A DNA stretch of 53,232 bases from Promethearchaeota archaeon (GTDB lineage: Archaea; Asgardarchaeota; Thorarchaeia; Thorarchaeales; Thorarchaeaceae), in contig JBHLPF010000021.1 of the NCBI GenBank assembly GCA_048939765.1, positions 1 to 53,232 of the forward strand. The letters are read 5' to 3'. How positions within the stretch are numbered: position 1 is the first letter of the stretch; each line of letters begins with the position of its first letter. The position numbers were made by a program, and so were the translations under genes. Shown here piece after piece: positions 12,468-42,156 of the stretch. The notes beneath the pieces were generated by a model. The model had not been told where the DNA came from. It did no database searches and was given only the letters and a program-made list of their open reading frames with translations.

Positions 12468-12986
12468 TCAGATGATATAGAGGTAGGTTAAGGCCTCCTC
12501 GTTTGTCTTGGCGGGAGTCCATCCTTTGAATCTAAACCGATATGAGACTACTCGAGTGCCCGGTTTGAGCTCTCTCGAGAATTTCTCTTCCAGCTTCTTA
12601 TTTACTCCAACTCCCTGGTAGACAGTGACCACAGTAGCATCTTCAATATTCGATTTGAAGAAATTCTCTCTGAGAACTTTGGACATCGGTGTAAGACCTT
12701 GCCGCCTAATAGCCAAACGGGACCACAGCACTCTCAACGGATCCATCTCAATTCCTACTGATTTGGCACCAAACTCCCTTGCAGCCATCGTGACGATGCG
12801 TCCATCTCCGGAGCCAATGTCATAGACTATGTCCTGGGGACCAACTTCTGCTAGCTCGAGCATTGTCCGTGCCTTCTTCCTTGGTGTTGGAACCCATGGG
12901 GCCCCGATAGTTGAGGACCACGCGATCCAAACCATGAAGCTCGCAAAGATGAACTCCAGAATGATTAGTAGCACCCAAATCTCCAT
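12468..12986 (-). CDS. Class I SAM-dependent methyltransferase with an N-terminal TM helix (FAM173/aKMT-like)
   Basis: GAPWVPTP, motif I YDIGSGDGRIV, GIEMD and LKPGTRVVS. Confidence 0.85.
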   Translation of the reverse strand: MEIWVLLIILEFIFASFMVWIAWSSTIGAPWVPTPRKKARTMLELAEVGPQDIVYDIGSGDGRIVTMAAREFGAKSVGIEMDPLRVLWSRLAIRRQGLTPMSKVLRENFFKSNIEDATVVTVYQGVGVNKKLEEKFSRELKPGTRVVSYRFRFKGWTPAKTNEEALTYLYII

Positions 12987-22471: not shown

Positions 22472-23605
22472 ATGAGTGAGTTCGTAATTCGTTACTTCAG
22501 CCCTCATGGACGGCAAGAGGAAAGGAAATTCAAGAATGATGCCTCACGAATAGAGCTTTCAATGAGGGCAGCAAGTGAAATCGACCTTACTCCATTGCAG
22601 GATTGTCACAAGCTAGAGAGATTGGATTTATCTCACAATTTCTTGGAAACATTGGATCTGGTTCCCTTGATGGACAATGAATCTCTTAACGTACTCCGTT
22701 TAGAGGACAATAGGCTCTCAGCCTTGGATCTGTGGCCCTTGCATAATTGCCCAAATCTTGCAGAGATTGAGCTAACCGAGAATAGACTGAGAACATTAGA
22801 CGTGACTCCTGTCTTCACATGTAATCTCTTACGCTCAGATTCCAGTGTTGTCTTGACTGCAGACAGTATTCTCAAACACATTCTTACACCTCAACGGATT
22901 ATGGCTCAGTTCAAATCAGTGCGCACAGACCGGACAGCATGGACTGCAACACCCGTGGTCATTTGGAATGATTATGACAAGCTAGTGGAAACAAAAGGGT
23001 GGCCTCTTGTATTTCAGCGCATGAAATCAGTCCTGACAAAGATATCAAAGGTTGATTGGTTTGACGCACAGAAAGGTCTACTAGAGTCCCTCGGCATGCT
23101 TGAACTCTCAGGCTTGGATGCTGATCCTATGAAGATTCTAGTGGATGTGTCTGAGGATGAGGACTATGAGTCTTCGAAGGAACGCATCTATGATCGCGTA
23201 GTTGACCTTCTAGCTGATCAAATAGAAAGAGGAGGCCCTACTCTATTCCTCGATGTATCCAAGATGAAAGACACTAGAGCATCGCGACTAATCCCTTCAA
23301 TTGTACGACAGAGAGAGTCAGAACTTGAAAACTTGGAGGTGCAGACACTTCGTGGTATTGCTTTTCTTCATCCAATATGGATGACGTCCTATGGCTTTGA
23401 TGTTCTTAGTGCTTTAGACTGCGGTCTGACCGCAAACTCCATTGGCATGAATCAAATCAAGAGTGCTTTTGCCGATGCTGGCTTTGAGCTAGACATCAGG
23501 CGGGTGGATTCCGTTGTTCATCGGAATTGGGGTGATACATCTCGCAGCTTCAGGCGGTTCATATTCAGACTTGCCCGATCCCATACTGGAAGAAAGCGGA
23601 TTTGA
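22472..23605 (+). CDS. Leucine-rich repeat protein with an uncharacterised C-terminal domain
   Basis: 22-aa LRRs: LERLDLSHNFLETLDLVPL, LNVLRLEDNRLSALDLWPL and LAEIELTENRLRTLDVTPV. Confidence 0.88.
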   Translation: MSEFVIRYFSPHGRQEERKFKNDASRIELSMRAASEIDLTPLQDCHKLERLDLSHNFLETLDLVPLMDNESLNVLRLEDNRLSALDLWPLHNCPNLAEIELTENRLRTLDVTPVFTCNLLRSDSSVVLTADSILKHILTPQRIMAQFKSVRTDRTAWTATPVVIWNDYDKLVETKGWPLVFQRMKSVLTKISKVDWFDAQKGLLESLGMLELSGLDADPMKILVDVSEDEDYESSKERIYDRVVDLLADQIERGGPTLFLDVSKMKDTRASRLIPSIVRQRESELENLEVQTLRGIAFLHPIWMTSYGFDVLSALDCGLTANSIGMNQIKSAFADAGFELDIRRVDSVVHRNWGDTSRSFRRFIFRLARSHTGRKRI

Positions 23606-25105: not shown

Positions 25106-25681
25106 CAGAAGCTCTCCGGGCTCGCGAAGGGGAATCTGACGGTGATTTAAGAGTAGCGAAGGAACCAATCTATGAATCGAACTCTTTTGTCATCTAGAGA
25201 AAGCAACTTGCTCCCCCCACAAAAGGCTCTGAAATCTATATTGTAGGCGTCGGCCGGAGTTTTTGCAATTTGGGTCGTGTGTGTGGAGTCAGTATGCCAA
25301 TAGGCATGGAAGTCATTGAACTCTTTTCGGAGCATAGAAGGCCGACGCTCTGATCTCCATATATCATCTCTATAATATATATGAAATTGTCATATACTAT
25401 ATGATGTGCTACGAGGATACAAATGGCGCCATTCATGAGAGAGGCCGGTGCGATGTTCTGAATATGGAGCCCATTGGGTTAAAGTGATATCAAACCACGA
25501 ACGAAGAGCATCTGGCATCTCCTAATAGCGCCATTCGAAAAATCGCATAGGTTTTGATTTTTTGGAATCAATATTCACCCAGTTGTTTAATATGTGGGAG
25601 AGACGATTCTCTCACATCCTCAGCTGAGTTCAATTCAGGAGCAGTATGGGTCACACTGCATCTATTGGAGGAGACATTAGA

Positions 25682-28600
25682 ATGCACAGTCGTCGGACTC
25701 TTTCATTCACAATCTTGCTATTGCCGATTCTTCTTCTGTCGACCTTTGGAGGTCATAATATCATAGGACAAGATGCTGAAAGCTCTCGCCTTGTAGATAT
25801 TGGAGGAGGACAGACTATCGAAGTTCAATCGGACGAAGTTCTGCGGTCATACAGCCTTTCTGACTCGCCGCTTGCTCGTGAGGGTGTGGGTTCTCCTCTC
25901 AACGGTTCAGAATACGGTACTCGTACTGACAGCTTCACTGACATCGAACTCACTTATGAAACCTCTAACACGACGACTTCCGACACAACCTCTGTGCCAT
26001 TGGGTCCCCTGTGGGAAGGCACAACAATATCAACTTCTATTAGTGACCTTCAAGAGAATCGAACCTGGTTGACAAATCCAGGTTTTGATTCTGATACTGA
26101 TTGGACACTTGGAACTGATGATGTAGGCATATACATCAATACACTCGATACCTCAATCACTGGAGGTGTTGTCAGCTTCACGCAATCTGGATATGATACT
26201 GGAACATGGTTCCGACATGACTTGGGAGATCGCTGCTATGCTGAACAGGGCATTTCAACAAATAGTGGTGAAGTTACATGGGTTGGAGTGTCTCTAGATT
26301 ACTGGGTGGATGATAATTGGGGTGGAGCACCTGTTGGATTCTGGGAACTCTATGTTCAAGTTGGAAGTGCGGATGTTGTTGCCAATCACTTGTGGGATAT
26401 GCAGTTCAGCGACGTTCTTGCTCAGACAACTTGGTACTCAACAGGTCTTGTTGAGGCAAATGCGTCACTAATTGCATCCTCAGATTTCACATTGCAGGTT
26501 GGAATGAGAACAACTCGGTCATTTGGCTGCAGGCCTCAACTGAATCCTGAAGTGCAAATGGATAATGTGAGGGTGTTTGTTAAGTCACGTGTATATCCAT
26601 CTCAAGTTAATCTGCAGATGAATGGATTGGGTGTTGGCAATGTGAGCGATGGTCTTGGGGGATGGTTATGGAGTATAGGAACTGCAACTGAAGTTCCGCA
26701 GACTCCATTGATTGGTAATTATGTCAACTCAACTTTCACATGGACACCCACACCAGTCAATCCTGATCCAAATGAAGTCATTCGTGTAAGTTTTTCAGTT
26801 GAAATGACGGTATACGCTCGGAAACTGAATGCCTCGTCACTGTATCAGGCAGAAGTGTCAAGCTATGGAGACCACTTTTCAGTTACAAATGGCTCTCAGG
26901 TACAATGGGAGAGTTACTACTTTGTCGCAGTTCCCAATGGATATTCAAATCTGTACTTCTTCAATCTCACAAAAGAGACGACCCGAACATTCGATATGGT
27001 GTCCGAACCTCGATATCCTGGTTCTGACTTTGTCTATTGGACTCAAGATTCAGCAAGTGTGAATGTGTCTGTGTATGAAGGAATCACTGACACATATCAA
27101 AATGGATTCTGGAAACTAAAAGGCCATTCAAGCAACATGATCCAAGATCTCCGGATGTGGACAGGCTCGTCTTGGGATACAACCTTCACATACCGAGCCA
27201 ACGCCAATGTTCGATTCCAGGCTCAACTCGGCTCTGCCTTCAATGGGGCAGTGGTAAGCTTCTCAATCTATGATACTTCTGGTGCACTGTGGGACAGCCT
27301 TGAAGCCACAGTTGTTGGAGGATTCGCTGAAACCGCAGATGTGAATCTTGATGCTTTGACAGCTGAGGTCGGACAATGGACTGTTGAAGCCTTTACGAAC
27401 GACTCTATCTCTGGCGGCCCGATTCATGATGTGGGTCTTTACGGCAGAGAGTTTACGATTCAACATGCCACAGATATGTATGTGACATACCCGCGGCAGT
27501 CTCAGATCAATTGGATGAGGAATCTCACATATGGCCAGGACATGTTGCTTCAGTTGAGAGTCAATGACTCTGATAATGGTGACCTTCTTCCTGGCGGTGC
27601 CGCCACCTACAATTGGACTAGTGGATTAAATCCATTAAATGACATGGGGACAGGAGAGTACAGCATTGTACTGAACACCGCTGATTTGGGCACCCCCGGT
27701 CGATATGCCATCACTCTGACATGGAGCCATGCCTACTATGACTCAATCCTAGAAACATTCGTCATCAATGTCATCGAAGAAACAAGTCTAAGCTCCCCTG
27801 ATGCGCCAGGGCTGACAGTTCCTCGAAGTTGGGATGCATCCTTCGAGCTCATCTTTGCTGACTCTCGTGATGCAGGTATTAGTGGCGCCACTATACTCTG
27901 TAATTGGACCGACTCATCATACAGCGTTGTCCCAGCTCCTGGGGAACCTGGGAACTACACATTGACAATAACAACTCCGAATACGAATCTAGGAACATAT
28001 GCAGTGATAGTCACTGCGCAGAAGGACTTCTACGTCACAGCCAGCATCACATTGTTCGTTGAAGTTAGGCAATTGTTCACATCTGTGTCGACATCCCGGA
28101 GTGTTGTCTATCTTCCAATCGGATTCCAGGAGTCAGTTTCACTGACAGTATGGGACACAGATCATGATCTGCCCATTACTGGGGCTGAGAGCTCGATAGT
28201 ATGCAATTGGTCGGAAAGCCATGTTTTAGGTGAACAGAACTATACTGTGACCATGACATCTCCAGGAGTATACGACGTTGTATTCTTCTCCACTGAAACA
28301 GATTTTCTACAGAGCTACGATGTCGTCTTTGATGTGAGTAGGTTTGGCTACCAGAATCATACTCTCTCAATTACTGTTATCGTGACCAGCCATCTTACGC
28401 TCTTGTCTCTTGATAACCCCGTTGCGCCTACACCTTATACCGGGACGATTCTCATCAATGTGACGTATTTCGATGGGTCAACACTCTCAGGCATAATTGG
28501 GTCTGAAGTCCTAATCTATGTGACCTCTCCAGTCGTCGAGCCCCTGAGCTATTCGGTATACAATGGGTCAATCGCTGGACAATACATTATTGCTGTCCCG

Positions 28601-31600
28601 GCAGGCCAATGGGGTGATATTGGTTGGAAACAACTATCAGTATATGCGAATTGGACTGGCCAACGCGCAAAGTACGCCAACAAAGTGCTGACCTTCTCAG
28701 TAAGACTCTCTGGAGCCCCGACCGATCTGTTTCTAGGGACCAGTCCCACATCAACGCCTTATGGCGAGAATGTCACATTCACAATAATCTACTGGGATGT
28801 TGGCGCCGACAGCGGAATTGTAAATGGCACTGGCCCATTCGCAAATAACGTCCTCATCTATATCGAAGTAATCACACCCGGCCAGGTATTAACACAGAGC
28901 CTCATGGTGATTACAGAAATCAATTCCATTGGCAGTCCTGGCGAGTATGGGATAGAGTTCAATTCATCCTATCTGTCCGGACTGATTGAATGTCAGCTGC
29001 GGATACATGTCAACTGGACAAAGGGAGCCCTTCCGTTATATGAGAACAGAACCTTACTACTCAGCGTCTTTTCCACCTACAGGCAGACAGTTGTCAACTG
29101 GAATCCATTACCAGTCACCCCTTACGATGAGAAGGTCAACCTCACACTGACCTTCAAGGATGTACTGTCGGACAGCAATATCCGTAATAGCTCAAGTCTT
29201 CTGATTACGACACCCGGCTATGCTTTCACAGTCTATTATGACGGTGATGCCACTGGCATATTCTTCATAGAGGTTGATACATCGCTCTTCTTATCAACGG
29301 GACCGCATTCGTTTCAAGTGAGTCTTGTATGGTCAGGTAGTCCATTCTATCAGAATCGTACGGTTGACATTCTCATCAATGTGCGTGAACGATATACATC
29401 GCTAACGCATGGCGTGTACTCACCGGTTGAATTCGGCAACAATTTGACCTTGGTATTCACATACACTGATCAGGATGATCTCACATCACTCGGAATGGAT
29501 GGAGGGACTCTCACAGTCACGGGAATGGCTGGGCTCTACGATGTCACAGACAATGGCGATGGAACTTACACTCTTGAGTTAAGGACCAATGGCTTCCCAT
29601 CGACTGGAACTTTCATTGTCAACGTTTCAATTGCCTACGGGGGAGCCAGGTTCTGTGCTGATGCTATTGATTTCTTCTACTTGACCATTCAGGCTAGACG
29701 TACCCAGATGACTAGTGAGCTTCCAAATCTTGCACCATTCCTGACTCAAGCTAACATAACTGTTCAGTACATCGATGACAGCACTGATACGGGAATTGAA
29801 GGAGCTCAGGTATTCGCGTACTGTGCAACGTCTTCACAGCCTCTTATGCAAAACACCAACTACCGGGTCGATGACCTCGGCTCTGGCTACTACAGAGTCC
29901 GCATATCAACTGTTGCCCTTGGCAATTTCGGTCGATATACAATTGAAATCACGGCAAATTGGACTGGCAGTCCCTTTTACCTGGAACGAGTCCGACTTGT
30001 GGATATTGAGGTTTCAAGAAGACCTGTCAGCCTGAGTGTTTCAAAATCACCACTCAACACACCCTTCCTTGAGAATGTGGAGTTCGAATTGACAATAGCC
30101 GATTCTCTTGATGGCTCTCCATTATCACTCAACAAGAGTGTGCTCATACTCACACATAATGGAGGCACGCTGATTCTGGATTCAGAATATAGTATCAGTG
30201 GTGCCAATGGTGTCTATGTAATATCAATCAACTCAACGGTGCTTACGTCTGTTCTGGTTTCAGGTCATCCGTTATTTGTGAAGTTCTTCTGGGGCGATTT
30301 GACTCCATATTATGCGAACGCAACAACATCGACTGCAGTCGACATCAATGCTCGCTTCACACAAGGTCGTGTGCTTACAACCCCTGGTGCCTTCTATTAC
30401 TTCAACTTGAGTGCCATCATCGAGTTCAGTGACTACCTATCTGGCAATCCCATCCCTGGTGCCGTGGTGACTTTCACATGTGTCAATGATTCGGTATTCT
30501 CAAGTTGGATTGTTGACATGGGCGATGGACGTTACAAAATAATCGTCGATACAAACGATCTTGAAGATGGCATAGGTCGTTACTATTTCAGTGCCGATAT
30601 CACATGGTCTGGGTCTCCATATTATGAAGACGTCATTGGAGTGGAGTTCAGTGTGCTAGTCAATCCGGTTTCAACTAGTCTGAATTTCGTCCTACCTCAA
30701 GGAGTCACATACTATCTTGGTGACCTAGTAGTTGGTAACATCACCTTCACCAACATCAACGAAGGTCAAGGCATTGATGGAGCCACTGTTGTTAGTGATT
30801 GGACAACCCTCTGGGGAACCGTGCACACAATCACTCCACTTGGAAACGGCATCTACAGGATGGAGATTGACACATCAGGACTCAATGCGCAAATCTACAC
30901 TTTCAGCATTAATGCTTCAAAATTCCTGCACCTAAGCAGGTCAGTCACAGCTGACATTCTCTTGGCAGCTATCCCTGTTGAAATTGATTTAGTCTTCTCA
31001 CCTACTGACCCTGTTTGGGGTGATGTGCTTGAGTTTAGTGCTGATGTCACTGATGCTCGAAGCGGAGCCCCAGTCTTGGGGGCAAGTGTAAACCTCACCC
31101 TTTATGGACAAACACATACTATGCCCGAGATCGGTGGAGGAATCTACAATGTCACTGTTTCTACAATGGGCCTTGTTAGTGGAGAATACACCATCAGGGT
31201 CGAATCTTTCCTATTGAACTACGAAACTAGACAGAGGGATTTCCAAATTCGGATAGACAAAGTCGCAGCGAAAATTCTGGCCTCCCTGGACCCACAAGTT
31301 GCAGTGAATGGGGAAACGGTGACTATTGAGGCTGAGTATTTGATCCTATCAAACAGTACGGTAATAGACATCGGAGTAGTGCAATATAGCTGGATCGGAG
31401 GTACAGGTATCCTGACATGGGTACCTGCGCAGCAGAAGTATATAGGCGAGATGATTGTTGCCAATGCGGCTGTAGGAAATCACCAGATTCTGATTCAAGC
31501 AAGCTCTTCAATCTACAAGAGTGTAAGCACCCCAATTACCATTGAGATTACTGAGATAACTACCGCACTCTCTGCATATCAAGATGTAACAGTTTTGTCA

Positions 31601-33406
31601 GCAGTTTCTGGTGACACTGTAAATGTAACCGTGTATTTGGAGAATGTAGATCTCACAGGGCCTGTACTTGGGGCATCGCTTACCTACGGAATATCGACAA
31701 TCAATGGTTCCCTTACTGAGCTGGGGAACGGTTTCTATACAGCTCAAGTTCCAACTGGAGCACCCCTTCAGATAGGTGACTGGATTCTTACTGTATCCAG
31801 CTTCATTGATGGCTATACTCCAGCGTCGATGCAGTTCACCATTACAATTCTCAAAGTGTCTACGGCTGTCATTCCGATTAGTGATGTACTGCAGAATGGA
31901 TACTACGGAAACAACTTGACGTTCCTATTGAGCTTCAATGACACCTTCAAGAATATTGGAATAACTGGTGCACTGGCAACATATGTGCTAGAAGGTAGGG
32001 GTGGCACACTTGCGGAAGTCGGTGGTGGAGTCTACTCTTTAACCATCAATACCACCTGGGTTACAGCTGGGCTAATCTCCCATGATATCTCTGTAACCTT
32101 CCAAAAGAATCTCTATGACTACGCCTACAGTGTTGTTAAGTTTGTATCAGTACCAATCTCCACTGAGGTTATAGGGTCTGATTCCGCGACTTTTCCGGTT
32201 GGTGACGACTTCACTCAGATGTTCCAGTTTAATGATACTCTAAACAATGAGTTTCTGGTGGATGCATCTGTTACAGCCTTCTGGGAGTTTGGTTCTGCTC
32301 CACTCCTTGCGTTGGGCAATGGATCGTATAGATTCGGTCCCACAGAGGCTGGCTTTAGCAGGCTGGAAGTGAGAAGCGAACCCTATGCACTTAGGATTTT
32401 ATTCAGCAAAGCTAACTACTCAACACAGCAGCTGAACTTCGAACTCACGATTCGCGAGATTGCGACTTCAATGATATTTGAACCTCTACCTCCAAGCATC
32501 TATGTCGGAGATCCATTCTATGTCCGCATCACATACATGGATGACGATCATGGTGTTCCAATCATCGACGCAATCAACACAACTATTCCCCTAGAGAATG
32601 AAGCCAGTCTTGCCATGGTTTATCCCAATGGTACGTATGTATTTGCTTTCGTTCCAAGTGCGGTTCGCTACTATGAGTTAGTCATCACACTTGAAAAAGA
32701 GGACTACCGGAAGGGTGTCTTAACTTTGGATATTTACTCTGTGTTCTCTCCTGAAACCCAGGCCATGTTTCAGACATTCAGCTATGCAGGCTTCTTGTTG
32801 ATTTTGGTTGCAGGTCTGGCGGCTGCATATGTGAGAGTCTGGTCTGTTCCGAAGCTTCTCAGAATCATTAGACGTATGGTTTCATTGCTCGGCAAGGGGC
32901 AAATTCCACCGGCTGCAAAGGTCCGTAATAGAAGAACATACCTCCTAGGTGTGATGAATGAGGATTTGGAGCCTGTTGGCATCAAGAAGACTATGCAGGA
33001 TGTTGCTGTTTCTACAGTCGAGGTAGAAGCCCTAGATGTTGAACAGCTACTAGAAGAGCTGCAGGTTGTCGTCGGCCTGAGCAATGACGACATAGCCGTT
33101 CTCAGGAGTGACCTTGAAAAGATGCGACCCAGCGAGCGTGCAGGGTTCATTGGAGAGGTCATCCGACAGGAGAGAGCAAGGAGAGCTCGCGAATTGGCCG
33201 AGGTTGAGGTGCCAGCTGAGGCACCTGGCGAGGTTTCAGAGGCTGAACGTAAGCTCACGGAGGAAGAGCTTGAGCATTTGAAACAGGAGCTCATCAAGAT
33301 GGGAATAGAACCATCCGAAGCGGATCTCATGGTGGAGCAAGCAAGATCGCTGACTAAAGCGGAAATAGACGCACTGCTTGATCAAATAGGAGGTCTGAAA
33401 GAATGA
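25682..33406 (+). CDS. Giant single-pass surface protein A (signal peptide, beta-rich head, many Ig-like repeats, TM helix, ~185-aa helical cytoplasmic tail)
   Basis: Open frame of 7.7 kb. Likely start is ATG 25682 after GGAGGAG. Repeated D/N-x-G-x-G-x-Y-x-hydrophobic motifs roughly every 100-115 aa, abundant N-x-S/T sequons, TM helix at about 32770-32840. Confidence 0.85.
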   Translation: MHSRRTLSFTILLLPILLLSTFGGHNIIGQDAESSRLVDIGGGQTIEVQSDEVLRSYSLSDSPLAREGVGSPLNGSEYGTRTDSFTDIELTYETSNTTTSDTTSVPLGPLWEGTTISTSISDLQENRTWLTNPGFDSDTDWTLGTDDVGIYINTLDTSITGGVVSFTQSGYDTGTWFRHDLGDRCYAEQGISTNSGEVTWVGVSLDYWVDDNWGGAPVGFWELYVQVGSADVVANHLWDMQFSDVLAQTTWYSTGLVEANASLIASSDFTLQVGMRTTRSFGCRPQLNPEVQMDNVRVFVKSRVYPSQVNLQMNGLGVGNVSDGLGGWLWSIGTATEVPQTPLIGNYVNSTFTWTPTPVNPDPNEVIRVSFSVEMTVYARKLNASSLYQAEVSSYGDHFSVTNGSQVQWESYYFVAVPNGYSNLYFFNLTKETTRTFDMVSEPRYPGSDFVYWTQDSASVNVSVYEGITDTYQNGFWKLKGHSSNMIQDLRMWTGSSWDTTFTYRANANVRFQAQLGSAFNGAVVSFSIYDTSGALWDSLEATVVGGFAETADVNLDALTAEVGQWTVEAFTNDSISGGPIHDVGLYGREFTIQHATDMYVTYPRQSQINWMRNLTYGQDMLLQLRVNDSDNGDLLPGGAATYNWTSGLNPLNDMGTGEYSIVLNTADLGTPGRYAITLTWSHAYYDSILETFVINVIEETSLSSPDAPGLTVPRSWDASFELIFADSRDAGISGATILCNWTDSSYSVVPAPGEPGNYTLTITTPNTNLGTYAVIVTAQKDFYVTASITLFVEVRQLFTSVSTSRSVVYLPIGFQESVSLTVWDTDHDLPITGAESSIVCNWSESHVLGEQNYTVTMTSPGVYDVVFFSTETDFLQSYDVVFDVSRFGYQNHTLSITVIVTSHLTLLSLDNPVAPTPYTGTILINVTYFDGSTLSGIIGSEVLIYVTSPVVEPLSYSVYNGSIAGQYIIAVPAGQWGDIGWKQLSVYANWTGQRAKYANKVLTFSVRLSGAPTDLFLGTSPTSTPYGENVTFTIIYWDVGADSGIVNGTGPFANNVLIYIEVITPGQVLTQSLMVITEINSIGSPGEYGIEFNSSYLSGLIECQLRIHVNWTKGALPLYENRTLLLSVFSTYRQTVVNWNPLPVTPYDEKVNLTLTFKDVLSDSNIRNSSSLLITTPGYAFTVYYDGDATGIFFIEVDTSLFLSTGPHSFQVSLVWSGSPFYQNRTVDILINVRERYTSLTHGVYSPVEFGNNLTLVFTYTDQDDLTSLGMDGGTLTVTGMAGLYDVTDNGDGTYTLELRTNGFPSTGTFIVNVSIAYGGARFCADAIDFFYLTIQARRTQMTSELPNLAPFLTQANITVQYIDDSTDTGIEGAQVFAYCATSSQPLMQNTNYRVDDLGSGYYRVRISTVALGNFGRYTIEITANWTGSPFYLERVRLVDIEVSRRPVSLSVSKSPLNTPFLENVEFELTIADSLDGSPLSLNKSVLILTHNGGTLILDSEYSISGANGVYVISINSTVLTSVLVSGHPLFVKFFWGDLTPYYANATTSTAVDINARFTQGRVLTTPGAFYYFNLSAIIEFSDYLSGNPIPGAVVTFTCVNDSVFSSWIVDMGDGRYKIIVDTNDLEDGIGRYYFSADITWSGSPYYEDVIGVEFSVLVNPVSTSLNFVLPQGVTYYLGDLVVGNITFTNINEGQGIDGATVVSDWTTLWGTVHTITPLGNGIYRMEIDTSGLNAQIYTFSINASKFLHLSRSVTADILLAAIPVEIDLVFSPTDPVWGDVLEFSADVTDARSGAPVLGASVNLTLYGQTHTMPEIGGGIYNVTVSTMGLVSGEYTIRVESFLLNYETRQRDFQIRIDKVAAKILASLDPQVAVNGETVTIEAEYLILSNSTVIDIGVVQYSWIGGTGILTWVPAQQKYIGEMIVANAAVGNHQILIQASSSIYKSVSTPITIEITEITTALSAYQDVTVLSAVSGDTVNVTVYLENVDLTGPVLGASLTYGISTINGSLTELGNGFYTAQVPTGAPLQIGDWILTVSSFIDGYTPASMQFTITILKVSTAVIPISDVLQNGYYGNNLTFLLSFNDTFKNIGITGALATYVLEGRGGTLAEVGGGVYSLTINTTWVTAGLISHDISVTFQKNLYDYAYSVVKFVSVPISTEVIGSDSATFPVGDDFTQMFQFNDTLNNEFLVDASVTAFWEFGSAPLLALGNGSYRFGPTEAGFSRLEVRSEPYALRILFSKANYSTQQLNFELTIREIATSMIFEPLPPSIYVGDPFYVRITYMDDDHGVPIIDAINTTIPLENEASLAMVYPNGTYVFAFVPSAVRYYELVITLEKEDYRKGVLTLDIYSVFSPETQAMFQTFSYAGFLLILVAGLAAAYVRVWSVPKLLRIIRRMVSLLGKGQIPPAAKVRNRRTYLLGVMNEDLEPVGIKKTMQDVAVSTVEVEALDVEQLLEELQVVVGLSNDDIAVLRSDLEKMRPSERAGFIGEVIRQERARRARELAEVEVPAEAPGEVSEAERKLTEEELEHLKQELIKMGIEPSEADLMVEQARSLTKAEIDALLDQIGGLKE

Positions 33407-36400
33407 AGCCATCAATGAGATTGACCCTGGTTCTGGTATTGGCATTCATGCTTGCCTTTGGAGCGTCAGGCCCAACTGCTTTCAACCTCAACTCGTTCAG
33501 CAGAAACGGCCAGAATACGAATCCTACTGCAGATTCCATGCAAAGCCCATTAGGCATCGAAGATAGAGCGTTCGCACTGTCTGAGCAGGGAATGGTGACT
33601 TGGCAAGGTACTTCATCAGGAATTCCTGCTATGGCATATGGCAATCGAACAGATATCCATCTAGACAACCAGATGCTCTATTCTCCAGGTACTGGTACAA
33701 CTACCGAAACCTCCGTTTCCATTCCAATGGGGGATGATTGGGAAGGTCATGAGTTATTTGTTGAGGTATATGATTTAACGGAGAATCGTACCTGGATACA
33801 AGACCCTGATATGGAGAGTAGTCCTTCAACATGGACACTTGGGACAGTACCAGTTGGAGGTGGTGCACAGCCTTATGCAAATTGGTTGACTGACGGACAT
33901 GGTGCCGGTGACGATTGTGCACAATTCGAAATGTATGACCCGACGCCTCCTGGAGATCCATCAGTAGGAGAAAGAGCCTACGCTAGGCAGAATGTGGCTG
34001 TGAATCGCGGAGATGTGGTATGGGCTGGTCTTCGTCTGGATTATTGGATAGACTCAGCGTGGGGAGCTGATGGCTTTGTTGCAGTATATGTTGCTGTGGA
34101 AACGAACGACTACACACAAAGGGTATGGCAGAAGTCCTTTGCTGATGTAGATTTAGCTCAAACATGGTACGATAGTGGCCTTGTGGTTTTGCAGGACCTC
34201 TCGACCTTTGACCTTTCTGATGGACTCGATATAGAAGTTGGCCTCTATAGTCAACAAACCGTAGACTACCAACCAGATCTCGAACCGGAGGCAAGAGTCG
34301 ATAATATCCAGCTCTACATTATGACTCTAACAGATCCGAGTGACCTAAATCTACAGGTCAATGGGCAAGATGTGGAGGATTTCATGACTGGAGGTTCTTC
34401 AACGCCAGGTTTGGGAAATATGACTCAGATACCTGTTCCTTCGTGGACAGCATCTCCTGTTGAAATAAATGTAACCTGGACACCGATACCTTCCACACCT
34501 GACCCAGATAGGGAAATTCGAGTGGACTTCAACATCATGACAAACCTCTATGCAAGACATGTGGAAACAACAGTTACTACACAAAATCCAACTGCATTTG
34601 GTGATATCTTCACAGTTGAAAATGCCACTGACGTGGATTACCTGACTTGGTTCAACGCTGATATTCCACCCGGATACGACAACAGATACTTCTTCAACAT
34701 GACACTTCCAGAAGGGCGCGACGTCTTCTACGTAGGATCGCCTCTCCTGACCTCAGAAAACATAACTGATTGGGATGAAGGTCATGGTCCAACCTGGTTC
34801 GCGAATATATCCGCATTTAACTATCCTGACAGATGGGGCTATTGGTTGATTAAGAGTACTGGGCCGAATATGATATCCGATGTCTTAATGTTCGATCCAT
34901 CCACCCGCTCGAACTCAAGGTTCCTTGACCTGCGTGCTGGAGATACTGCGAAGCTAGTCACGCATTTGGACCCAGGCTTCGCTGGTGTCGATGTGAATCT
35001 AACAGTCTATTCACCATCAGGGGCAATTTGGTACACAACTCTGGCAACGGTGAACAGCACCGGATATGCAGAAACCCCTGTATTGACCTTCGGACAGAAC
35101 GCCACCGCTGGTAGCTATGTCCTTGAGGCCTTCTGTGGTAATTCAATAGGTGTGACCGCATGGAATGAAACTGGCTTCTTCAGACGTGCATTCAAGGTTG
35201 TTCATGCTTCAAATTCAGAGCTTCTCAACCCCGTTGATGCACAGGTTACATGGATAACAAATGTGACATATCCCGATCTATTCCTTGTCAGAATACGTAT
35301 CAATGACAGCGATATACTTGGAGTGACTGTACCAGGAGGGCAGATGTCATGCAACTGGACAACTGGTCCTCAGGCTTTTGGAGATGCTGGAAACGGGGAG
35401 TACATTATAACACTTGATTCCGGTGACCTACCATCGAACGGCATCTGGATTATAGAAATCACATGGACTCACCCGCACTTTGATTCCATAGTTGATTACT
35501 TGACAATCAATCTGAACTACGATGCAACGTTCGTACTTGAGAACCCTGAATCACCTGGAATTTCAGTGCCCAAGAATTACAACTCTAGCTTCCAAGTTAG
35601 ATTCGAGGATTCGACGGGGAATCCAATTGACTATGGACGTGTGGACTGCAACTGGACAAGCTATTACACTGTCAATCCTGTCCTAGGTTCGCCGGGGAGT
35701 TACCTCGTCTGGCTGAATACGACATTTGTGGACATGGGTGAATATGTCGTGGAAGTCACCGGCAAAGCCAATTTTGTACTTCCACAGCGATATCTCATCT
35801 ATGTGACCGTGAGAGAACTGAATACTAGAGCCACTTATGTCCAGAATGTGCTTGAGATTCCAGTTGGCGAAGCTAGTTCATTCACAGTAGATTGGATGGA
35901 CGCAGATCATGACATTCCTCTGACAGGACTAAATGATTCAATTACAACTACTTGGACAGGAGCTTATGCAGTGAATGAGGTCTCACCTGGCCTTTACAAC
36001 ATCACAGTTTACACATCGGATAGCGATGCTCCAGGCAATTATTCGGTATCAGTCAGTCTCTCCGGATACCTAATGAGAAATCAGACGTTCACAATATCTG
36101 TTGTCATTAGGTCTCATAGTACACTATTCACTCTAGACGAACCACTCCAGCAGACTCAATTCAATGAACAGGTGATGTTGCTGGTCTTCTTCCAAGATAC
36201 TGACTTGCAGGTCGGTATCACAAACATCACTGGAAACGTGCGGATTACCATCACTTCGCCAGAGATTGGAAATGTCCAATTCACATTAGTGGGCTCTTCA
36301 CTTGGTGATGGGCATTACAACATGACTATTCCCAGCACTCAATGGGGCAGCGCGGGATGGAAGAATCTGACAATATCAGTTTCATGGAACGGAGCCAAAT

Positions 36401-39400
36401 ACACAGGTCAATCCTTCAGCACTCAAGTGCGTTTGACTGGGACGGCGACAGACATTTTCCTAGACCAAGCTCCTACTGCGGTCTATTTCCTGAATGAATT
36501 CAGCTTCTCTGTTATCTACTATGACGTGACAAATACAACGAACATATCAAACGACACACTCAATGTCATGCTGAAAATTGATTCACTTACAGCAGGACAC
36601 CCTGTTACTCAGAGTGATTTCATTGTGACGGAAACAGGAGTTGGAACGGGGATATATGAATTCAGATTGGACAGCGCGCAACTGGACTCCACTGGTTCAT
36701 TCATATTCCGCATCGGATTCATGTGGCCAAAGGGAGTATCACCTCTATATGAAAACCAGACCATGACTGTTACCCTCGTGGTGCTTCAGAGACCCACATA
36801 CATCGACTATATTCCAGTGCCATCGACACCCTATGGTGAGCTCGCTGATCTGGAATTCAGCTACATAGACTTCCTGACAACTACGCGCATTGGTGACTCT
36901 CCTCAGATGTCAATATCTCTAATCAATGGAAGTGTAGGCTATTCCTATTCATATGACTCAGGTGAGATGTCCTTCCTTCTTCGAGTTGATACATCAACAT
37001 TGGCCGGAATTGGGAGTCACGTTCTAGTCTTGAATGTCACTTGGATCGGTTCACCGTATTACACAACCACTGTGACGTTGGTGTACACAGTTACAGTAAT
37101 CCAGAGAGCTACCCAATTGACGCATGATTCATTCGCTCCTGGTCAATGGGGCAACAACGTGACTATCCAATTCACATATACAGACCTAGTGGCTGAATCT
37201 TCTGCAGGAATGACTGGAACTCTCACATTGAACGCATCCCTAGCTGGATGGTACACGGTCGTCTATGCAGGAAATGGACATTATCTTGTAACTGTGAACA
37301 CATCTGGAGTTGGAGCCGATGGCCTCTATACGATTGTAGCCAGTATTGATCACACCCAGCCAACATTTGCCAGTGCTATTGACACATTCGGCTTTTCGGT
37401 GCTTCAGCGGTCTACGCAGTTCGGATATGAGAGTCCAGACCCAGCCCCATATTTGGAGAATGTTTCTTTTGTAGTCACATACATTGATGACAGCACAGCA
37501 AGAGGTGTCAGCGGAGCATCAGTCATTGTAGATTGCAGCAACTCCACGTTTGTACTCGCGTTGAATACAAATTACTGGGTAACATACCTCGGATTAGGGC
37601 AATATCTCATAGAAGTAGAAAGCACTGCTCTAGGGAATCTAGGAACATATGTCCTGAGTGTATCTGTATCTTATTCTGGCGCGCCCTACTACCTTCCTGC
37701 GAATAATGATGTCACCTCTAGAGTGGTTGAGAGAACAACGCAGATTCTCATTATTCAGACTCCGGGTGAAACGCCATTCCTCGAGAATGTGACATTCCAA
37801 TTCAAGTTTGAAGACTACATCACTGGAATGATTATTCCTATCGACAAGTCGCACATCACCTTGTCACACGGAGTGGCAGAAACTCCTATCACAATGGGTG
37901 AGTACTCCTTGTACGACTTTGGAACACATTATGAGATTAGCTTCAATTCTACCGTTCTCAATCCTACAGACCTTGTTGTCGGTGAAGCGATTCAACTTGA
38001 GATTGACATAACTGGTGCTCCTCCCTATTATGCACTAAGAAGCACTAATACCATAGCCACTACAACTGAAAGGTCCACGCAGATACTCTTCCCACTGATT
38101 GAAGAAGTACCTTATACTGACAACTTTACGATTGAGCTCGACTATATTGACTTTTTGACTGGTCAAGGTATCGAGAATGCACAGATAGAGTTGACAAGTG
38201 GGAATTGGACTGGCTCACCATATCAAGTCGTAGAATTGGGCAGCGGCTCATATGAAGTCTACATCAATTCAACCGTCTTCGGTGGCATTGGCACTGTCTT
38301 CTTTGATATCCTAGCCAGCAGGGAAGGAGTCCCATTCTACTCCTCTAGGCTCGCTACTGGTGTACCTGCAAGCATACGAGCAATCATCACTTCTCTCGTT
38401 GCAGAGGCGCCTCCGCCTGGTTCGACAGCGGTTGGTGTTCCAATCAATGTCACACTGATTCTCATGGACTTCGATCATGATATACCTCTATCTGGCGCTG
38501 TTATCACAACTGATTGGACTTCTCTGTATGGAACAAGTTATACACTCGTTGAGGAAGGCAGTGGCGTCTACACCCTAACGCTCAACATGATTGGGTTAAT
38601 AGCACAAGATTACTCGTTCACAGTCACAGCCCAGAAGACACTATATCAAGACTCAAACGTCGTTGTTTCAGTTACTCCCGGAGCTTCAACTTTCGCACTC
38701 GTTCTTCATAAGACTGCAATCTATGCGCTCTGGGGTGAGGTTCATGACATCCGCATTGACGTGAGAGAGAGCTACTACTACAGTCTTATTCCCGGGGCGA
38801 ATGTGACTCTCCTCTGGAATAGCACCTTATACTACTTCACCGACTTGGCAAATGGTACATATTCGCTAATGCTTGACACATCAAATGAGAACTTTGGCGT
38901 TTACAATCCGCAGATATCCGTATCAAGGCAATACTACCAGACACGTCAGACTAGTCTTGCTCTCGTGGTATCAAAAGCACCAGGTCAAATTCTTAGCGAG
39001 CAAACAGTGTTTGATGTGGTTGTTAACACAACGCGCGTCTTCATCATCTACCTCAATGACACTATCACGGATTCTCCTGTTGTTGCCTCATCAATTACTA
39101 TGGAGTGGAATAATACCGCCTATCCTCTTGTTTCAAATGGAACCCCTGGTTTCTATATTGCAAGCATTGATGCCACAGGGTTTGCATTGGGTCCGTATGA
39201 AGCGGTGATCAGTGCGGCTTCCTTGAACCATGTATTCCTTGATGCAATTGTAGATATCAACGTAGTTCCTATTCCAACGAATATAGGGTTAGTGAGCGGT
39301 GCAGCAGCATTGTTTGTGGTGCGAGGTGCAATGCTCTCAATTCTTGTTGAATACAATGATACGTACTATGGTGGATATGTTCCTGGCGCAAATGTCACAT

Positions 39401-41097
39401 ATGTTCTTGGTGGCCTAAAAGGCACTCTTACAGAGAATATCAATGGTACTTACAATGCCACAATTGATACCAGTGGTCTGCCTGCTCAAACGATATTCCT
39501 TAGAATCATAGGCATTCGAACTGGAATGGCTACAGCTACGAGGACTCTGGTTGTTACAATACAACCTGTGCCTACTGAAGTGACTGTAGATACATTGCTG
39601 CACGAAGGATACCATAACGACGTTGTGGAGTTCACTTTCCACTACAATGACACATACAATCTCCAGCCCATTGCGGGAGCCTTTGTGGACATTAGTTGGG
39701 AAGGCGGGACAGGGGATGTAACTGACCTTGGTAATGGATATTATCTTGTTGAGATCACTCTGACTCCAACCTCACCTAGGCTCTATGATATAGTGGCAAG
39801 CTTCAGTCTACAGAACTATTCCTTATCATCACTTACTGTGAGAGTTCTCATAACTGCTACTCCAGCACATATTGAAGGACCAATGGCGTACGACGTTCCT
39901 GTCAATCACACTGGCTCTGTCGTATTCAATGTAATCAATGATTTAACAAATGAAACCATTGAGGGTCTTCAGGGATTGGCATATTGGGAAAGTGGACTGA
40001 TAATGGAGCTCTTCCAGATGGGCAATGGTAGCTATGAATTGAGAGTGCCAGACTATCTCATCATGACGAGCTATCGGATTGAGATTGGATTCTCCACGTC
40101 GATTTACAGCCTCTCCTCGCAGTTCCTCGACCTGACTGTTCGTCCAGTTCTCACCTTCATTGATACACTCGGACTAAATACGACAATAGTTACAAACCCA
40201 GGAGCTCAGGATTCTATAGTAATACTTCTTCGAGACCTAGACCATGATGTGGGAATCAGCGATGCCAATGCATCCGTTAGTTTTGATCCCGCACTAATCT
40301 CATTTCCAGAGGAAAGGAGGACCGTCGATTTGGATGGCGTCTACACCTTCCCATATGTAGTACGCGAGGGTGGCACAATCACTGTGACTATCACCTTCAC
40401 AAAGGACTTGTACTTCTCCCAGCAAATCACCTTCACTCTGAAATCAGACTACTCAGAAGAACAGCTACTGACTCAGAGACTGGCAGTGGGCGGAGGCTTC
40501 CTCTTTATCCTTCTGGCTATTGGGATTGTCGCATACGTCAAGCACTTTGCCATCCCATGGATCATTCGACAGCTGAATAAGATGATAGCTGCATTAGCCA
40601 AAGGAAAAGTTCCACGTGCGCCGAAGGTGCGTGCCAGAGAAGATCTGGTCCTTGAGATTGTCAATGAGGAACTGAAGCCATCTGGACTTGCTAAGGAGCT
40701 TGAGGATGTTCCAGGTCCAAGTATTGAAGCAGTGGTTCCTGAGGTTGAAGACCTTCTGGAGCACCTGGCGCAGATTACCGGTCTTGGAGAGGTTGAGCTA
40801 GAGGCATTCAGACAGGACCTTGCCCGGATGCGTGCAAGTGAGCGACCTGGATTCATTCGTGAGGTAATTGAGCAGGAGGAGGCTCGACGAGCAGAAGCAT
40901 TGGCTGAGGCTGAACCTGTCCCCGCTGAGGCCAAGGAGATTCTAGAAGACAAACCTGAGGAGCTTGAAGAGCTTCGCTTGAAGTTGAAGCGAAAAGGCAT
41001 GTCTGATGATGAGATTGAGATCATCATTGAACAGGCAAAGAGCCTATCAAAGGCTGACCTTGAAGCTCTCCTTGACAGTCTTGGAATTAAGCTCTGA
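33403..41097 (+). CDS. Giant single-pass surface protein B, paralog of protein A
   Basis: ATGA overlap with gene A. Colinear similarity, e.g. DLQENRTW/DLTENRTW, TWTPTPVNPDP/TWTPIPSTPDP, PLYENRT/PLYENQT and TPFLENV. TM helix at about 40480-40545. Confidence 0.85.
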   Translation: MKPSMRLTLVLVLAFMLAFGASGPTAFNLNSFSRNGQNTNPTADSMQSPLGIEDRAFALSEQGMVTWQGTSSGIPAMAYGNRTDIHLDNQMLYSPGTGTTTETSVSIPMGDDWEGHELFVEVYDLTENRTWIQDPDMESSPSTWTLGTVPVGGGAQPYANWLTDGHGAGDDCAQFEMYDPTPPGDPSVGERAYARQNVAVNRGDVVWAGLRLDYWIDSAWGADGFVAVYVAVETNDYTQRVWQKSFADVDLAQTWYDSGLVVLQDLSTFDLSDGLDIEVGLYSQQTVDYQPDLEPEARVDNIQLYIMTLTDPSDLNLQVNGQDVEDFMTGGSSTPGLGNMTQIPVPSWTASPVEINVTWTPIPSTPDPDREIRVDFNIMTNLYARHVETTVTTQNPTAFGDIFTVENATDVDYLTWFNADIPPGYDNRYFFNMTLPEGRDVFYVGSPLLTSENITDWDEGHGPTWFANISAFNYPDRWGYWLIKSTGPNMISDVLMFDPSTRSNSRFLDLRAGDTAKLVTHLDPGFAGVDVNLTVYSPSGAIWYTTLATVNSTGYAETPVLTFGQNATAGSYVLEAFCGNSIGVTAWNETGFFRRAFKVVHASNSELLNPVDAQVTWITNVTYPDLFLVRIRINDSDILGVTVPGGQMSCNWTTGPQAFGDAGNGEYIITLDSGDLPSNGIWIIEITWTHPHFDSIVDYLTINLNYDATFVLENPESPGISVPKNYNSSFQVRFEDSTGNPIDYGRVDCNWTSYYTVNPVLGSPGSYLVWLNTTFVDMGEYVVEVTGKANFVLPQRYLIYVTVRELNTRATYVQNVLEIPVGEASSFTVDWMDADHDIPLTGLNDSITTTWTGAYAVNEVSPGLYNITVYTSDSDAPGNYSVSVSLSGYLMRNQTFTISVVIRSHSTLFTLDEPLQQTQFNEQVMLLVFFQDTDLQVGITNITGNVRITITSPEIGNVQFTLVGSSLGDGHYNMTIPSTQWGSAGWKNLTISVSWNGAKYTGQSFSTQVRLTGTATDIFLDQAPTAVYFLNEFSFSVIYYDVTNTTNISNDTLNVMLKIDSLTAGHPVTQSDFIVTETGVGTGIYEFRLDSAQLDSTGSFIFRIGFMWPKGVSPLYENQTMTVTLVVLQRPTYIDYIPVPSTPYGELADLEFSYIDFLTTTRIGDSPQMSISLINGSVGYSYSYDSGEMSFLLRVDTSTLAGIGSHVLVLNVTWIGSPYYTTTVTLVYTVTVIQRATQLTHDSFAPGQWGNNVTIQFTYTDLVAESSAGMTGTLTLNASLAGWYTVVYAGNGHYLVTVNTSGVGADGLYTIVASIDHTQPTFASAIDTFGFSVLQRSTQFGYESPDPAPYLENVSFVVTYIDDSTARGVSGASVIVDCSNSTFVLALNTNYWVTYLGLGQYLIEVESTALGNLGTYVLSVSVSYSGAPYYLPANNDVTSRVVERTTQILIIQTPGETPFLENVTFQFKFEDYITGMIIPIDKSHITLSHGVAETPITMGEYSLYDFGTHYEISFNSTVLNPTDLVVGEAIQLEIDITGAPPYYALRSTNTIATTTERSTQILFPLIEEVPYTDNFTIELDYIDFLTGQGIENAQIELTSGNWTGSPYQVVELGSGSYEVYINSTVFGGIGTVFFDILASREGVPFYSSRLATGVPASIRAIITSLVAEAPPPGSTAVGVPINVTLILMDFDHDIPLSGAVITTDWTSLYGTSYTLVEEGSGVYTLTLNMIGLIAQDYSFTVTAQKTLYQDSNVVVSVTPGASTFALVLHKTAIYALWGEVHDIRIDVRESYYYSLIPGANVTLLWNSTLYYFTDLANGTYSLMLDTSNENFGVYNPQISVSRQYYQTRQTSLALVVSKAPGQILSEQTVFDVVVNTTRVFIIYLNDTITDSPVVASSITMEWNNTAYPLVSNGTPGFYIASIDATGFALGPYEAVISAASLNHVFLDAIVDINVVPIPTNIGLVSGAAALFVVRGAMLSILVEYNDTYYGGYVPGANVTYVLGGLKGTLTENINGTYNATIDTSGLPAQTIFLRIIGIRTGMATATRTLVVTIQPVPTEVTVDTLLHEGYHNDVVEFTFHYNDTYNLQPIAGAFVDISWEGGTGDVTDLGNGYYLVEITLTPTSPRLYDIVASFSLQNYSLSSLTVRVLITATPAHIEGPMAYDVPVNHTGSVVFNVINDLTNETIEGLQGLAYWESGLIMELFQMGNGSYELRVPDYLIMTSYRIEIGFSTSIYSLSSQFLDLTVRPVLTFIDTLGLNTTIVTNPGAQDSIVILLRDLDHDVGISDANASVSFDPALISFPEERRTVDLDGVYTFPYVVREGGTITVTITFTKDLYFSQQITFTLKSDYSEEQLLTQRLAVGGGFLFILLAIGIVAYVKHFAIPWIIRQLNKMIAALAKGKVPRAPKVRAREDLVLEIVNEELKPSGLAKELEDVPGPSIEAVVPEVEDLLEHLAQITGLGEVELEAFRQDLARMRASERPGFIREVIEQEEARRAEALAEAEPVPAEAKEILEDKPEELEELRLKLKRKGMSDDEIEIIIEQAKSLSKADLEALLDSLGIKL

Positions 41098-41133
41098 TCT
41101 GTAGTGACTGAGTGAGAGGAGCAACTTCTTCTC

Positions 41134-42156
41134 TCACCTCGCCCTCTTTCGTCTTCTAGTGACAATGCCAAGGGCAATAAATCCAACAACAACACTAAAC
41201 CACAGGGTGACGAATCGAATGATGATAGTAGCTGCGCCCGCTATTGCATAAGATGTACTTAGGAGCAAGATAATCAAAGCCGTGCTTGACACCTCATATG
41301 TTCCAAGCCCTCCAGGGAGAAAAGATAGCGCTCCAATCACTGAAGCAGTTGTGTGAATGAATGTGGCAATCATTAAGAGAGTGATTGAGGTTGAAGTGAG
41401 GTTTGGAATTCCCGCACCAGTCATCAGTGATAGGAGTAGCCAAAGCTCAAGACACTCCATGAACCAGCCTGGTATGCTTATGGCAGTACTAAGAGTCATA
41501 GGCTGAGGCGAGAGAGTCTTCTTCATCGTATCTTGAATCAAGTCTACACTGTCCTGAAACCTCTTCAGAGGTCCAAAAGATGTCATCTTTCTCAGGAAGA
41601 CATTGTAGAATCTCGGCTGACCCAGAAATATTGCCCCAATTAGGACAATTCCGCCGAGCAGCAAAACGGTCGTAAGCTGATCAACTCCTGATAGGCCTAA
41701 TACTAATCCTATCATTGCAAGCAAGACCATTGCCAAAAGGTCTGTGACTCGTTCTGACACCACAATAGGCACGGTCTTTGCAATCGGAGTATCATCCATA
41801 TCGTTGATGAAGTACGCCTTTACCGCTTCCCCAATCTTGCCGGGAGATGTTGTTAGTGTAAAGCCTGCCAGGAAAATGCTAAAGCTATCAGCGTGTGAGA
41901 GATTTACATTTATTCTATGGAGGAAATATTGCCACTTGATGTATCGTAGGATATAGTTCAGAAATGACAGGCCCATCATTACTGGAAGAACCCACCACCA
42001 CTCAATAGCTGCCAATGCTGCAAGGATTTCATCGAATTCCCGGAAGAGGAGAATCGCAAGGTAGAGAATGACGCCAGCAAATACAAAAATCAAGACTTTG
42101 CGGAGACTAACAAAGGACTCCTGAGCTACATTGTCTGATTCCGACTCATTGCTCAT
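41134..42156 (-). CDS. Lysylphosphatidylglycerol synthase TM-domain / flippase-like protein (AglD2/UPF0104 family)
   Basis: LRYIKWQYFL, PGKIGEAVK, ERVTDL, PGGLGTYE and IIRFVTLW motifs. Multi-TM protein. Confidence 0.88.
   Translation of the reverse strand: MSNESESDNVAQESFVSLRKVLIFVFAGVILYLAILLFREFDEILAALAAIEWWWVLPVMMGLSFLNYILRYIKWQYFLHRINVNLSHADSFSIFLAGFTLTTSPGKIGEAVKAYFINDMDDTPIAKTVPIVVSERVTDLLAMVLLAMIGLVLGLSGVDQLTTVLLLGGIVLIGAIFLGQPRFYNVFLRKMTSFGPLKRFQDSVDLIQDTMKKTLSPQPMTLSTAISIPGWFMECLELWLLLSLMTGAGIPNLTSTSITLLMIATFIHTTASVIGALSFLPGGLGTYEVSSTALIILLLSTSYAIAGAATIIIRFVTLWFSVVVGFIALGIVTRRRKRAR

Follow-up and report, generated by a model that had tools for sequence, protein, structure and literature searches.

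Two coupled giant paralogous proteins of Thorarchaeota, candidate subunits of one conserved surface structure

Giant repeat surface proteins are a known kind of molecule. In bacteria, the giant adhesins built of immunoglobulin-like (Ig-like; E-set) domains, such as SiiE, the MpIBP/LapA-type RTX adhesins, Embp and invasin/intimin, form very long tandem rods with a distal ligand-binding region. Among archaea, the S-layer proteins of thermoacidophiles are reported to carry one N-glycosylation sequon per 30-40 residues (PMC11284389). Cultured Asgard archaea have no S-layer; their surface bears an amorphous protein coat and long surface structures with components of unknown composition (PMC9834061; 10.1101/2025.11.06.686947), and they crawl on surfaces via actin-filled protrusions, for which the adhesion molecules were not identified in that paper (PMC13716822). 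Here we describe two giant genes, A and B, in a 53,232-nucleotide stretch of Thorarchaeaceae DNA (contig JBHLPF010000021.1 of assembly GCA_048939765.1), referred to as the window. The window comes from contig C106 of a 3.37-Mb, 88.5%-complete genome, and the database orthologues of A and B bear the name Candidatus Thorarchaeota. With moderate confidence, we take A and B to be subunits of a single surface structure that is conserved in Thorarchaeota. That they work together is almost certain; that they physically associate has, judged from sequences and single-chain models, about an even chance. All statements on function made below are inferences.

A and B have the same very long Ig-like rods as the bacterial giant adhesins, and the fold matches of A models include invasin, intimin and the repeat region of a large adhesion protein. 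As the models suggest, they may also share ligand binding. However, the bacterial proteins are retained by LPXTG motifs, a type I secretion retention module or an outer-membrane barrel, whereas A and B are anchored by one transmembrane helix followed by a 185-aa cytoplasmic domain. Repeat number is variable in the bacterial adhesins and fixed at 17 in A and B, which moreover are an ancient, translationally coupled paralog pair with a sequon-rich ectodomain and an archaeal host. Archaeal S-layer glycoproteins (Nitrosopumilus maritimus SLP, 8c8o; Haloferax volcanii csg, 7ptp) share with A and B a signal peptide, dense sequons, strings of beta-sandwiches and C-terminal anchoring, but they have no sequence relation to them, structural TM-scores are only ~0.12, and their anchors lack a long folded inner domain. 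SlaA/SlaB of the Sulfolobales is also a two-gene system, but its two proteins are not related to each other and SlaB alone has an anchor, whereas A and B are paralogs and both are anchored in the membrane.

An earlier note on this DNA, made from the sequence alone, had likened the pair to integrin or cadherin receptors. The comparison stands as an analogy of layout: what is common is a single-pass type I protein with a large ectodomain and a conserved cytoplasmic tail, and in integrins two chains act together, as an obligate non-covalent heterodimer. It goes no further, as the defining domains are absent: a Pfam scan found no FG-GAP propeller, vWA/MIDAS domain or cadherin repeats in A or B, and no Cadherin match even at E up to 1. 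Neither integrins nor cadherins are homologous to A and B, which are each other's paralogs, and the 185-aa tails of A and B are helical, without an NPxY-type motif. The integrin alpha propeller is a seven-bladed FG-GAP propeller, whereas the one found in some A orthologues is of the six-bladed NHL/SGL kind. What sets A and B apart from giant adhesins and S-layer glycoproteins is the anchor of transmembrane helix plus folded tail, the fixed architecture and the ancient coupled pair of paralogs. New here are the synteny count, the two-clade tree, the stasis of the repeats, the fold and fast evolution of the head, and the distribution across Asgard lineages.

The two genes are long open reading frames (ORFs) arranged head to tail on the + strand (25646/25682..33406, then 33403..41097), both open. 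The features that define the unit are as follows.

25667..25671, + strand: GGAGG, Shine-Dalgarno-like, 10 nt before the preferred start of A (read from the sequence)
25682..33406, + strand: gene A, predicted type I membrane glycoprotein, 2574 aa
33389..33406, + strand: coupling site, GGAGG (33389-33393) in the last codons of A plus ATGA (33403-33406) (read from the sequence)
33403..41097, + strand: gene B, paralog of A with the same architecture, 2564 aa

An upstream ATG at 25646 is an alternative start of A and would yield 2586 aa (residue numbers of A below refer to this translation). The start at 25682 is preferred because it has its own GGAGG 10 nt upstream and because the database protein P0003, which is 100% identical to A over the searched tail, is 2574 aa long. 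At the junction, the ATG of B (33403-33405) overlaps the TGA of A (33404-33406), with GGAGG 9 nt before the ATG of B. The ORFs, the junction sequence and the alignment bear out the ATGA overlap of two ~2570-aa colinear paralogs that the earlier note had described. The proteins are 31% identical and colinear, with 4% gaps over ~2560 aa, and so are indeed well-diverged paralogs of nearly equal length (2574 vs 2564 aa) and architecture. Translational coupling, proposed from this one junction, is kept across relatives: ATGA is found in 8 of the 11 A/B-type junctions examined, with an internal GGAGG, and two more have a gap of -1 to +5 nt. Given the overlap and the ribosome-binding site in the last codons of A, the two proteins would likely be co-made in a fixed ratio.

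The cytoplasmic tail served as the marker for a survey of 300 genomes of the phylum. It was found in 72 of the 76 genomes of the window's family, in the single genome of a sister family (1/1), in 19/19 genomes of a Hermodarchaeota family and in 4/4 genomes of a family with 1.3-1.4-Mb genomes that we take to be Odinarchaeia. Outside these Thor, Hermod and probable Odin families, matches in the survey were weak or none. Both tails are present in 44 of the 58 family genomes that are at least 85% complete, the A-type tails being 49-93% and the B-type tails 36-48% identical to the tail of A. The B tail lies 7.6-7.8 kb downstream of the A tail on the same strand in every genome with both on one contig (32/32), and no other arrangement on one contig occurs among the genomes examined. 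Where the two tails are on separate contigs, one of the two is at a contig end. The pair is present in 15 of the 16 genera of the family and also in a second family of the order, and the NCBI locus tags of A/B orthologues are consecutive in 9 pairs from 8 metagenome-assembled genomes. The pair is thus syntenic across the family and beyond, one of two expectations that followed from the idea of a conserved A-B unit.

The other expectation, that A and B form two separate clades, also held: they separate with support of 100 and 98-100 in trees built from the C-terminal 900 aa and from just the last 300 aa. The sister family's pair takes a basal position, and its downstream gene falls beside B in one tree. 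In a genome of the same genus as the window (G011; loci L013/L014, G011:C22:1-31500), an en-bloc duplication of the entire unit has given A1-B1-A2-B2; ATGA overlaps are found at the two A-to-B junctions alike, and the copies fall within the A and B clades with matching topology. The family-wide synteny and the two clades rule out that A and B are recent lineage-specific duplicates. Both genes are intact in dozens of genomes, and the ratio of nonsynonymous to synonymous substitution rates (dN/dS) is 0.06-0.19 in all segments of more than 100 codons, which is not a matter of chance. Among same-genus genomes it is 0.06-0.1 over most of both genes, which indicates that the whole length is under purifying selection.

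Most of each ectodomain is a rod of Ig-like repeats, delimited with an iterated hidden Markov model (HMM).

27467..32770, + strand: 17 Ig-like repeats of A, ~97-121 aa each (iterated HMM)
35206..40467, + strand: 17 Ig-like repeats of B, 16 above the cut-off and a weak 17th supported by length and alignment (iterated HMM)

By this model the array spans approximately residue 620 to 2360 in each protein, in units of ~97-121 aa, and the count of 17, which includes one unit below the detection cut-off in each protein, falls within the 15-18 repeats estimated previously. In structural models, the first repeats of A resemble the MG domains of alpha2-macroglobulin/C3 (Z ~11.7), and the last one (model 2283-2586) folds as an Ig-like sandwich of the filamin/macroglobulin type, with Z 7.1-7.5 against filamin domains. 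All 24 of the A/B-type rows examined have 17 repeats in the same pattern of per-repeat spacing, and full-length B proteins are 2457-2600 aa long (n=72). Free-standing adhesins usually vary in repeat number, and the fixed count is the strongest indirect argument that A and B have a defined joint structure.

Signal peptides and membrane anchors place the rods outside the cell.

25682..25753, + strand: signal peptide of A, with a basic start, Leu-rich core and small-residue end (..STFGG) (read from the translation)
33403..33468, + strand: signal peptide of B (read from the translation)
32792..32848, + strand: transmembrane helix of A, residues 2383-2401, hydropathy peak 2.03
40483..40539, + strand: transmembrane helix of B, residues 2361-2379, hydropathy peak 2.4
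32849..33403, + strand: tail of A, 185 aa, with a basic juxtamembrane motif, helical core, acidic linker and C-terminal three-helix module
40540..41094, + strand: tail of B, 185 aa, 43-44% identical to that of A

All the parts that had been read from the translations (signal peptide, beta-rich head, Ig-like repeats, one transmembrane helix and a ~185-aa tail) were recovered in each protein. So was the richness in N-glycosylation sequons (N-x-S/T): the ectodomain of A has 54 vs 24 expected and that of B 60 vs 23 expected, an excess of 2.3-2.6x and a density of one per 39-43 residues, whereas the tails have 0. Lysine makes up ~1% of the ectodomain, and the tails are rich in E, K, R and L. This composition makes the outside/inside topology clear. 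Pfam searches with full-length A and B gave no family at its cut-off, and Filamin and CarboxypepD_reg appeared only below threshold. The conserved cysteines yielded no candidate for an interchain disulfide.

Exactly 185 residues follow the transmembrane helix in both A and B, and this tail, picked out earlier as a conserved intracellular domain, is the most conserved region of both proteins. In the AlphaFold2 model of the C-terminus (A 2283-2586; predicted local distance difference test, pLDDT, 83.1), the transmembrane and juxtamembrane segments form one long continuous helix. Beyond it come five more helices, an acidic linker that is disordered, and at the end a module of three helices. In sequence, the conserved layout starts with a basic juxtamembrane stretch that contains P-K-x-x-R and ends in K-G-x-I-P; a helical core with SER.GF..EV..QE..RRA follows, then an acidic linker that varies, then a C-terminal module of ~45 aa. 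Searches of the tail against Pfam (E up to 10) and PDB sequences (by profile) gave nothing significant, and the ESM Atlas returned no usable hit; the sub-threshold RecX_HTH1 and Bap31 C-terminal domain hits are noise. A fold search with the C-terminal model gave no PDB match for the helical tail, which it barely probed, as nearly all the room among the hits went to the Ig domain. Among 1.84 billion cluster representatives searched by profile, the tail was found in 187 proteins; nearly all listed matches stop no more than a few residues short of the protein's end, and some proteins with long tails extend past the match. The three-helix module is present as one copy in A and B, as four in the longer tails of two paralogs, and as 1 to 4 across the family. 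Support from hhalign for an internal duplication of this module in the tail is weak (P = 6e-4, probability 29%). First impressions of the module as a UBA domain or a MIM-like peptide found no support and were dropped.

A literature search returned no description of this surface-protein family. On the basis of these searches, the A/B family appears to be undescribed and its tail a new, lineage-restricted domain. A folded, strongly conserved cytoplasmic domain is unusual for prokaryotic surface proteins, and invites a search for an inner partner. Antisense ORFs of 182 aa (32782-33330, - strand) and 240 aa (40473-41195, - strand) lie mostly within the tail-coding regions of A and B; the Glu/Leu-rich codon content most likely accounts for them, and there is no sign that they are genes.

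The tails differ in charge in a way that could bear on contact between A and B. One position (2515) is R/K in 90 of 95 A and D/E in all 84 B sequences, and a second is R/K in all 95 A and mostly acidic or neutral in B. With 10 B sequences, three positions on one helix face had seemed to be complementary in charge; with 84, the reversal is robust at one of them, mostly holds at another and breaks down at position 2510. Charge complementarity of the tails is the one molecular hint of A:B contact, and a weak one.

At the other end of the rods are the heads, the fastest-evolving parts of the two proteins.

25754..27466, + strand: head of A, all-beta, with a low-confidence N-terminal stretch, jelly roll, further beta domain and macroglobulin-like domain (AlphaFold2 and fold searches)
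26051..26587, + strand: jelly roll of A, carbohydrate-binding-module-like, the fastest-evolving segment (VIA-align, dS comparison)
33469..35205, + strand: head of B, all-beta, colinear with the head of A, 32% identity

An AlphaFold2 model of the head (A residues 37-730, from 23 orthologous heads; mean pLDDT 84.6) was compared by VIA-align fold search with 48,161 PDB representatives. Model residues 100-278 (A ~136-314) match the jelly rolls of carbohydrate-binding modules (CBMs). The best match is 4d0q, a hyaluronan-binding module of CBM70 (Z 12.7, root-mean-square deviation (rmsd) 3.0 Å, 140 residues), followed by CBM4, 16, 36 and 61 and MAM domains (Z 10-11.6); across all of these matches, rmsd is ~3 Å over 120-160 residues. 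The fold is common to all of these, but the A jelly roll has no sequence match to any CBM family in Pfam. Model residues 460-675 resemble two macroglobulin-type Ig-like domains of alpha2-macroglobulin and C3/C5 (Z ~11.7). Foldseek with the whole head model returned strings of beta-sandwiches, including archaeal S-layer chains and Eph ectodomains, at TM-scores of 0.12-0.19, which speak to general build only; the top rows are the archaeal S-layer Ig-like chains 8c8o and 7ptp, at only ~0.12.

Within the genus, the jelly roll of A is 79% identical vs 91-93% elsewhere, with a synonymous divergence (dS) of 2.2-2.6 vs ~0.55. Taken over the same-genus genomes, the domain is 63-79% identical, where rods and tails reach 91-93%, and its dS is either saturated or several times as high. 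The raised dS points to head alleles being exchanged through recombination, as expected of an exposed binding or recognition tip. The tip of A also varies in build. Lengths of A fall into two classes, 2473-2631 aa and 2870-2923 aa, and in the three long forms aligned a six-bladed NHL-type (NHL/SGL) propeller region takes the place of the first ~150 residues. This propeller is present in some genera and not in others.

A and B belong to a larger family. The window genome encodes at least eight complete or truncated tail-bearing giants (A, B, two each on contigs C57 and C75, and single ones on the short contigs C30 and C58), with a fragment on C28, and the three-helix module occurs in this genome only in nine giant ORFs. 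Relatives have the same further pairs, of ~4100/3180 aa and 6560/3995 aa, and the C75 pair is also ATGA-overlapped. The matched length on which the earlier note had built a 1:1 assembly is real for A and B (2574 vs 2564 aa) and fails as a family rule, since other tandem pairs are unequal. Paralogs of ~3600-4000 aa have 405-aa tails in which the 45-aa three-helix module occurs four times (L025:11506-12723 on G000 contig C75; L026:1701-2915 on C30; L030:594-1814 in genome G005), and in G005 a 6560-aa family member is encoded beside the 405-aa-tail paralog. In Hermodarchaeota, a tandem pair of 1424 and 1515 aa (L031, G035:C24:85000-96000), 186 nt apart, has the same layout of transmembrane helix plus tail, and its two proteins are each other's closest relatives on the tail tree. 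The tree contradicts a universal scheme in which every pair would have one member of an upstream type and one of a downstream type. By tail sequence, the tandem pairs appear to have come from separate duplications, or else their tails were homogenised.

The window, and the contig beyond it, encode further giants. A 1586-aa protein with an N-terminal hydrophobic segment (13208-17968, + strand) has a distantly A-like head (22% identity over 835 aa, E 2e-17), a few similar repeats, a transmembrane helix at residue 1321 and a different ~250-aa cytoplasmic domain; it is a third surface giant in the window, without the A/B tail. At the window's end, a giant ORF (51488-53230, + strand, continuing on C106 to 57769) encodes 2094 aa, interrupted by an N run in the assembly, with a signal peptide, a C-terminal transmembrane helix and a short, very basic tail. 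A second tandem giant ORF (C106 57579-63248, at least 1889 aa) runs off the contig. Neither of these tandem giants has BLASTP similarity to A or B.

How might A and B act together? Sequences and models show that both are exported by their signal peptides and that each is held by one C-terminal helix, with a folded helical tail on the inner side and an ectodomain that is probably heavily N-glycosylated and consists of a lectin-like head on a rod of 17 individualised Ig-like domains. At an assumed ~4 nm per domain, the rods would be ~70-85 nm long. Most likely, A and B would stand next to each other in a hetero-oligomer of matched lengths, the variable tips would bind glycans on particles or other cells, and the tails would dock to a cytoplasmic partner or to each other. 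That tail-bearing giants recur as tandem pairs from separate duplications argues for two subunits of one structure. A heterodimer is plausible and agrees with the synteny, the coupling and the two clades, although these are no proof of it. Several observations weigh against joint assembly. Tandem duplication yields adjacent paralogs by default, and sharing an operon is no proof that two proteins form a complex. In the family's other pairs the two members differ in length, and the four genomes of one genus (g3; 87-96% complete) have other family members and no A/B orthologues. Only 5 charge-reversed columns exist in the whole protein, and one tail column failed with 84 B sequences. Glycan binding by the head, for its part, is suggested by fold likeness alone. 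A bolder version, in which the pair would be a length-matched heterodimeric adhesion receptor whose helical tail, with its 1-4 three-helix docking modules, ties the surface to Asgard cytoplasmic machinery such as the actin cytoskeleton or ubiquitin/ESCRT, we consider improbable. If true, prokaryotes would have evolved, independently, their own counterpart of the link from outside to inside that eukaryotic adhesion receptors provide.

It is also possible, if somewhat unlikely, that A and B are independent adhesins, co-expressed from one operon and not touching, each with its own tip specificity so that the cell has a wider ligand range. The heads, as the most diverged and fastest-evolving parts, with a raised dS suggestive of allele swapping, are consistent with this, as are the modular A tip that gains or lacks its NHL-type propeller by genus, the growth of the family by tandem duplication and the unequal pairs elsewhere in it. 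However, independent adhesins usually differ in repeat number, whereas both paralogs here have 17 repeats of the same individual lengths in all rows examined, nearly every genus has retained the gene order and the stop/start coupling, and in no genome examined were A and B arranged otherwise on one contig. We think it unlikely that A and B are protective coat blocks, that is, a structural and non-adhesive S-layer-like canopy or mucin-like glycocalyx of defined thickness. Their fixed length would suit a spacer, their sequon density is near that reported for thermoacidophile S-layer proteins (PMC11284389), S-layer chains (8c8o, 7ptp) head the Foldseek rows even if at a TM-score of only ~0.12, and the coat of cultured Asgard cells is amorphous, not a lattice (PMC9834061; 10.1101/2025.11.06.686947). 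Yet a passive layer needs neither a lectin-like, fast-evolving tip nor a conserved 185-aa inner tail, and at least eight such genes of different lengths occur in one genome. As the earlier note had expected, no characterised S-layer family is matched by sequence (Pfam on A and B; tail profile vs PDB sequences); this and the tail's place as the most conserved part of both proteins rule out a plain S-layer protein. Least probable by far, in our judgment, is a signalling receptor that relays ligand binding at the tip across the membrane to an effector that the tail would recruit. In its favour, the tail is conserved and, in the model, folded, and a three-helix module in 1-4 copies is what a docking module would look like. 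Against this, Pfam found no enzymatic or known signalling domain, a 17-domain rod would be a poor transmitter of conformational change, and there are no conserved neighbouring signalling genes, the flanks in the window being unrelated metabolic genes.

A, B and their relatives are concrete, conserved candidates for the surface structures of Thorarchaeota and related lineages. In the survey the family came up strongly only in the Thor, Hermod and probably Odin lineages, not in the cultured Loki or Heimdall ones.

In the window the pair is flanked by opposite-strand genes of metabolic or membrane kind that have no relation to it: upstream one of the ADP-forming CoA ligase type, downstream one for an LPG-synthase-TM protein. 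A-B is therefore a self-contained two-gene unit. A 377-aa leucine-rich-repeat protein (LRR_4, LRR_8; 22472-23605, + strand) is encoded 2 kb upstream of A, with the oppositely oriented CoA-ligase gene between. Further upstream, a 172-aa methyltransferase (12468-12986, - strand) has as its best Pfam match the DOT1 histone-methyltransferase family, which passes the cut-off at E 2.6e-8; in an Asgard genome, this family name is of eukaryote type.

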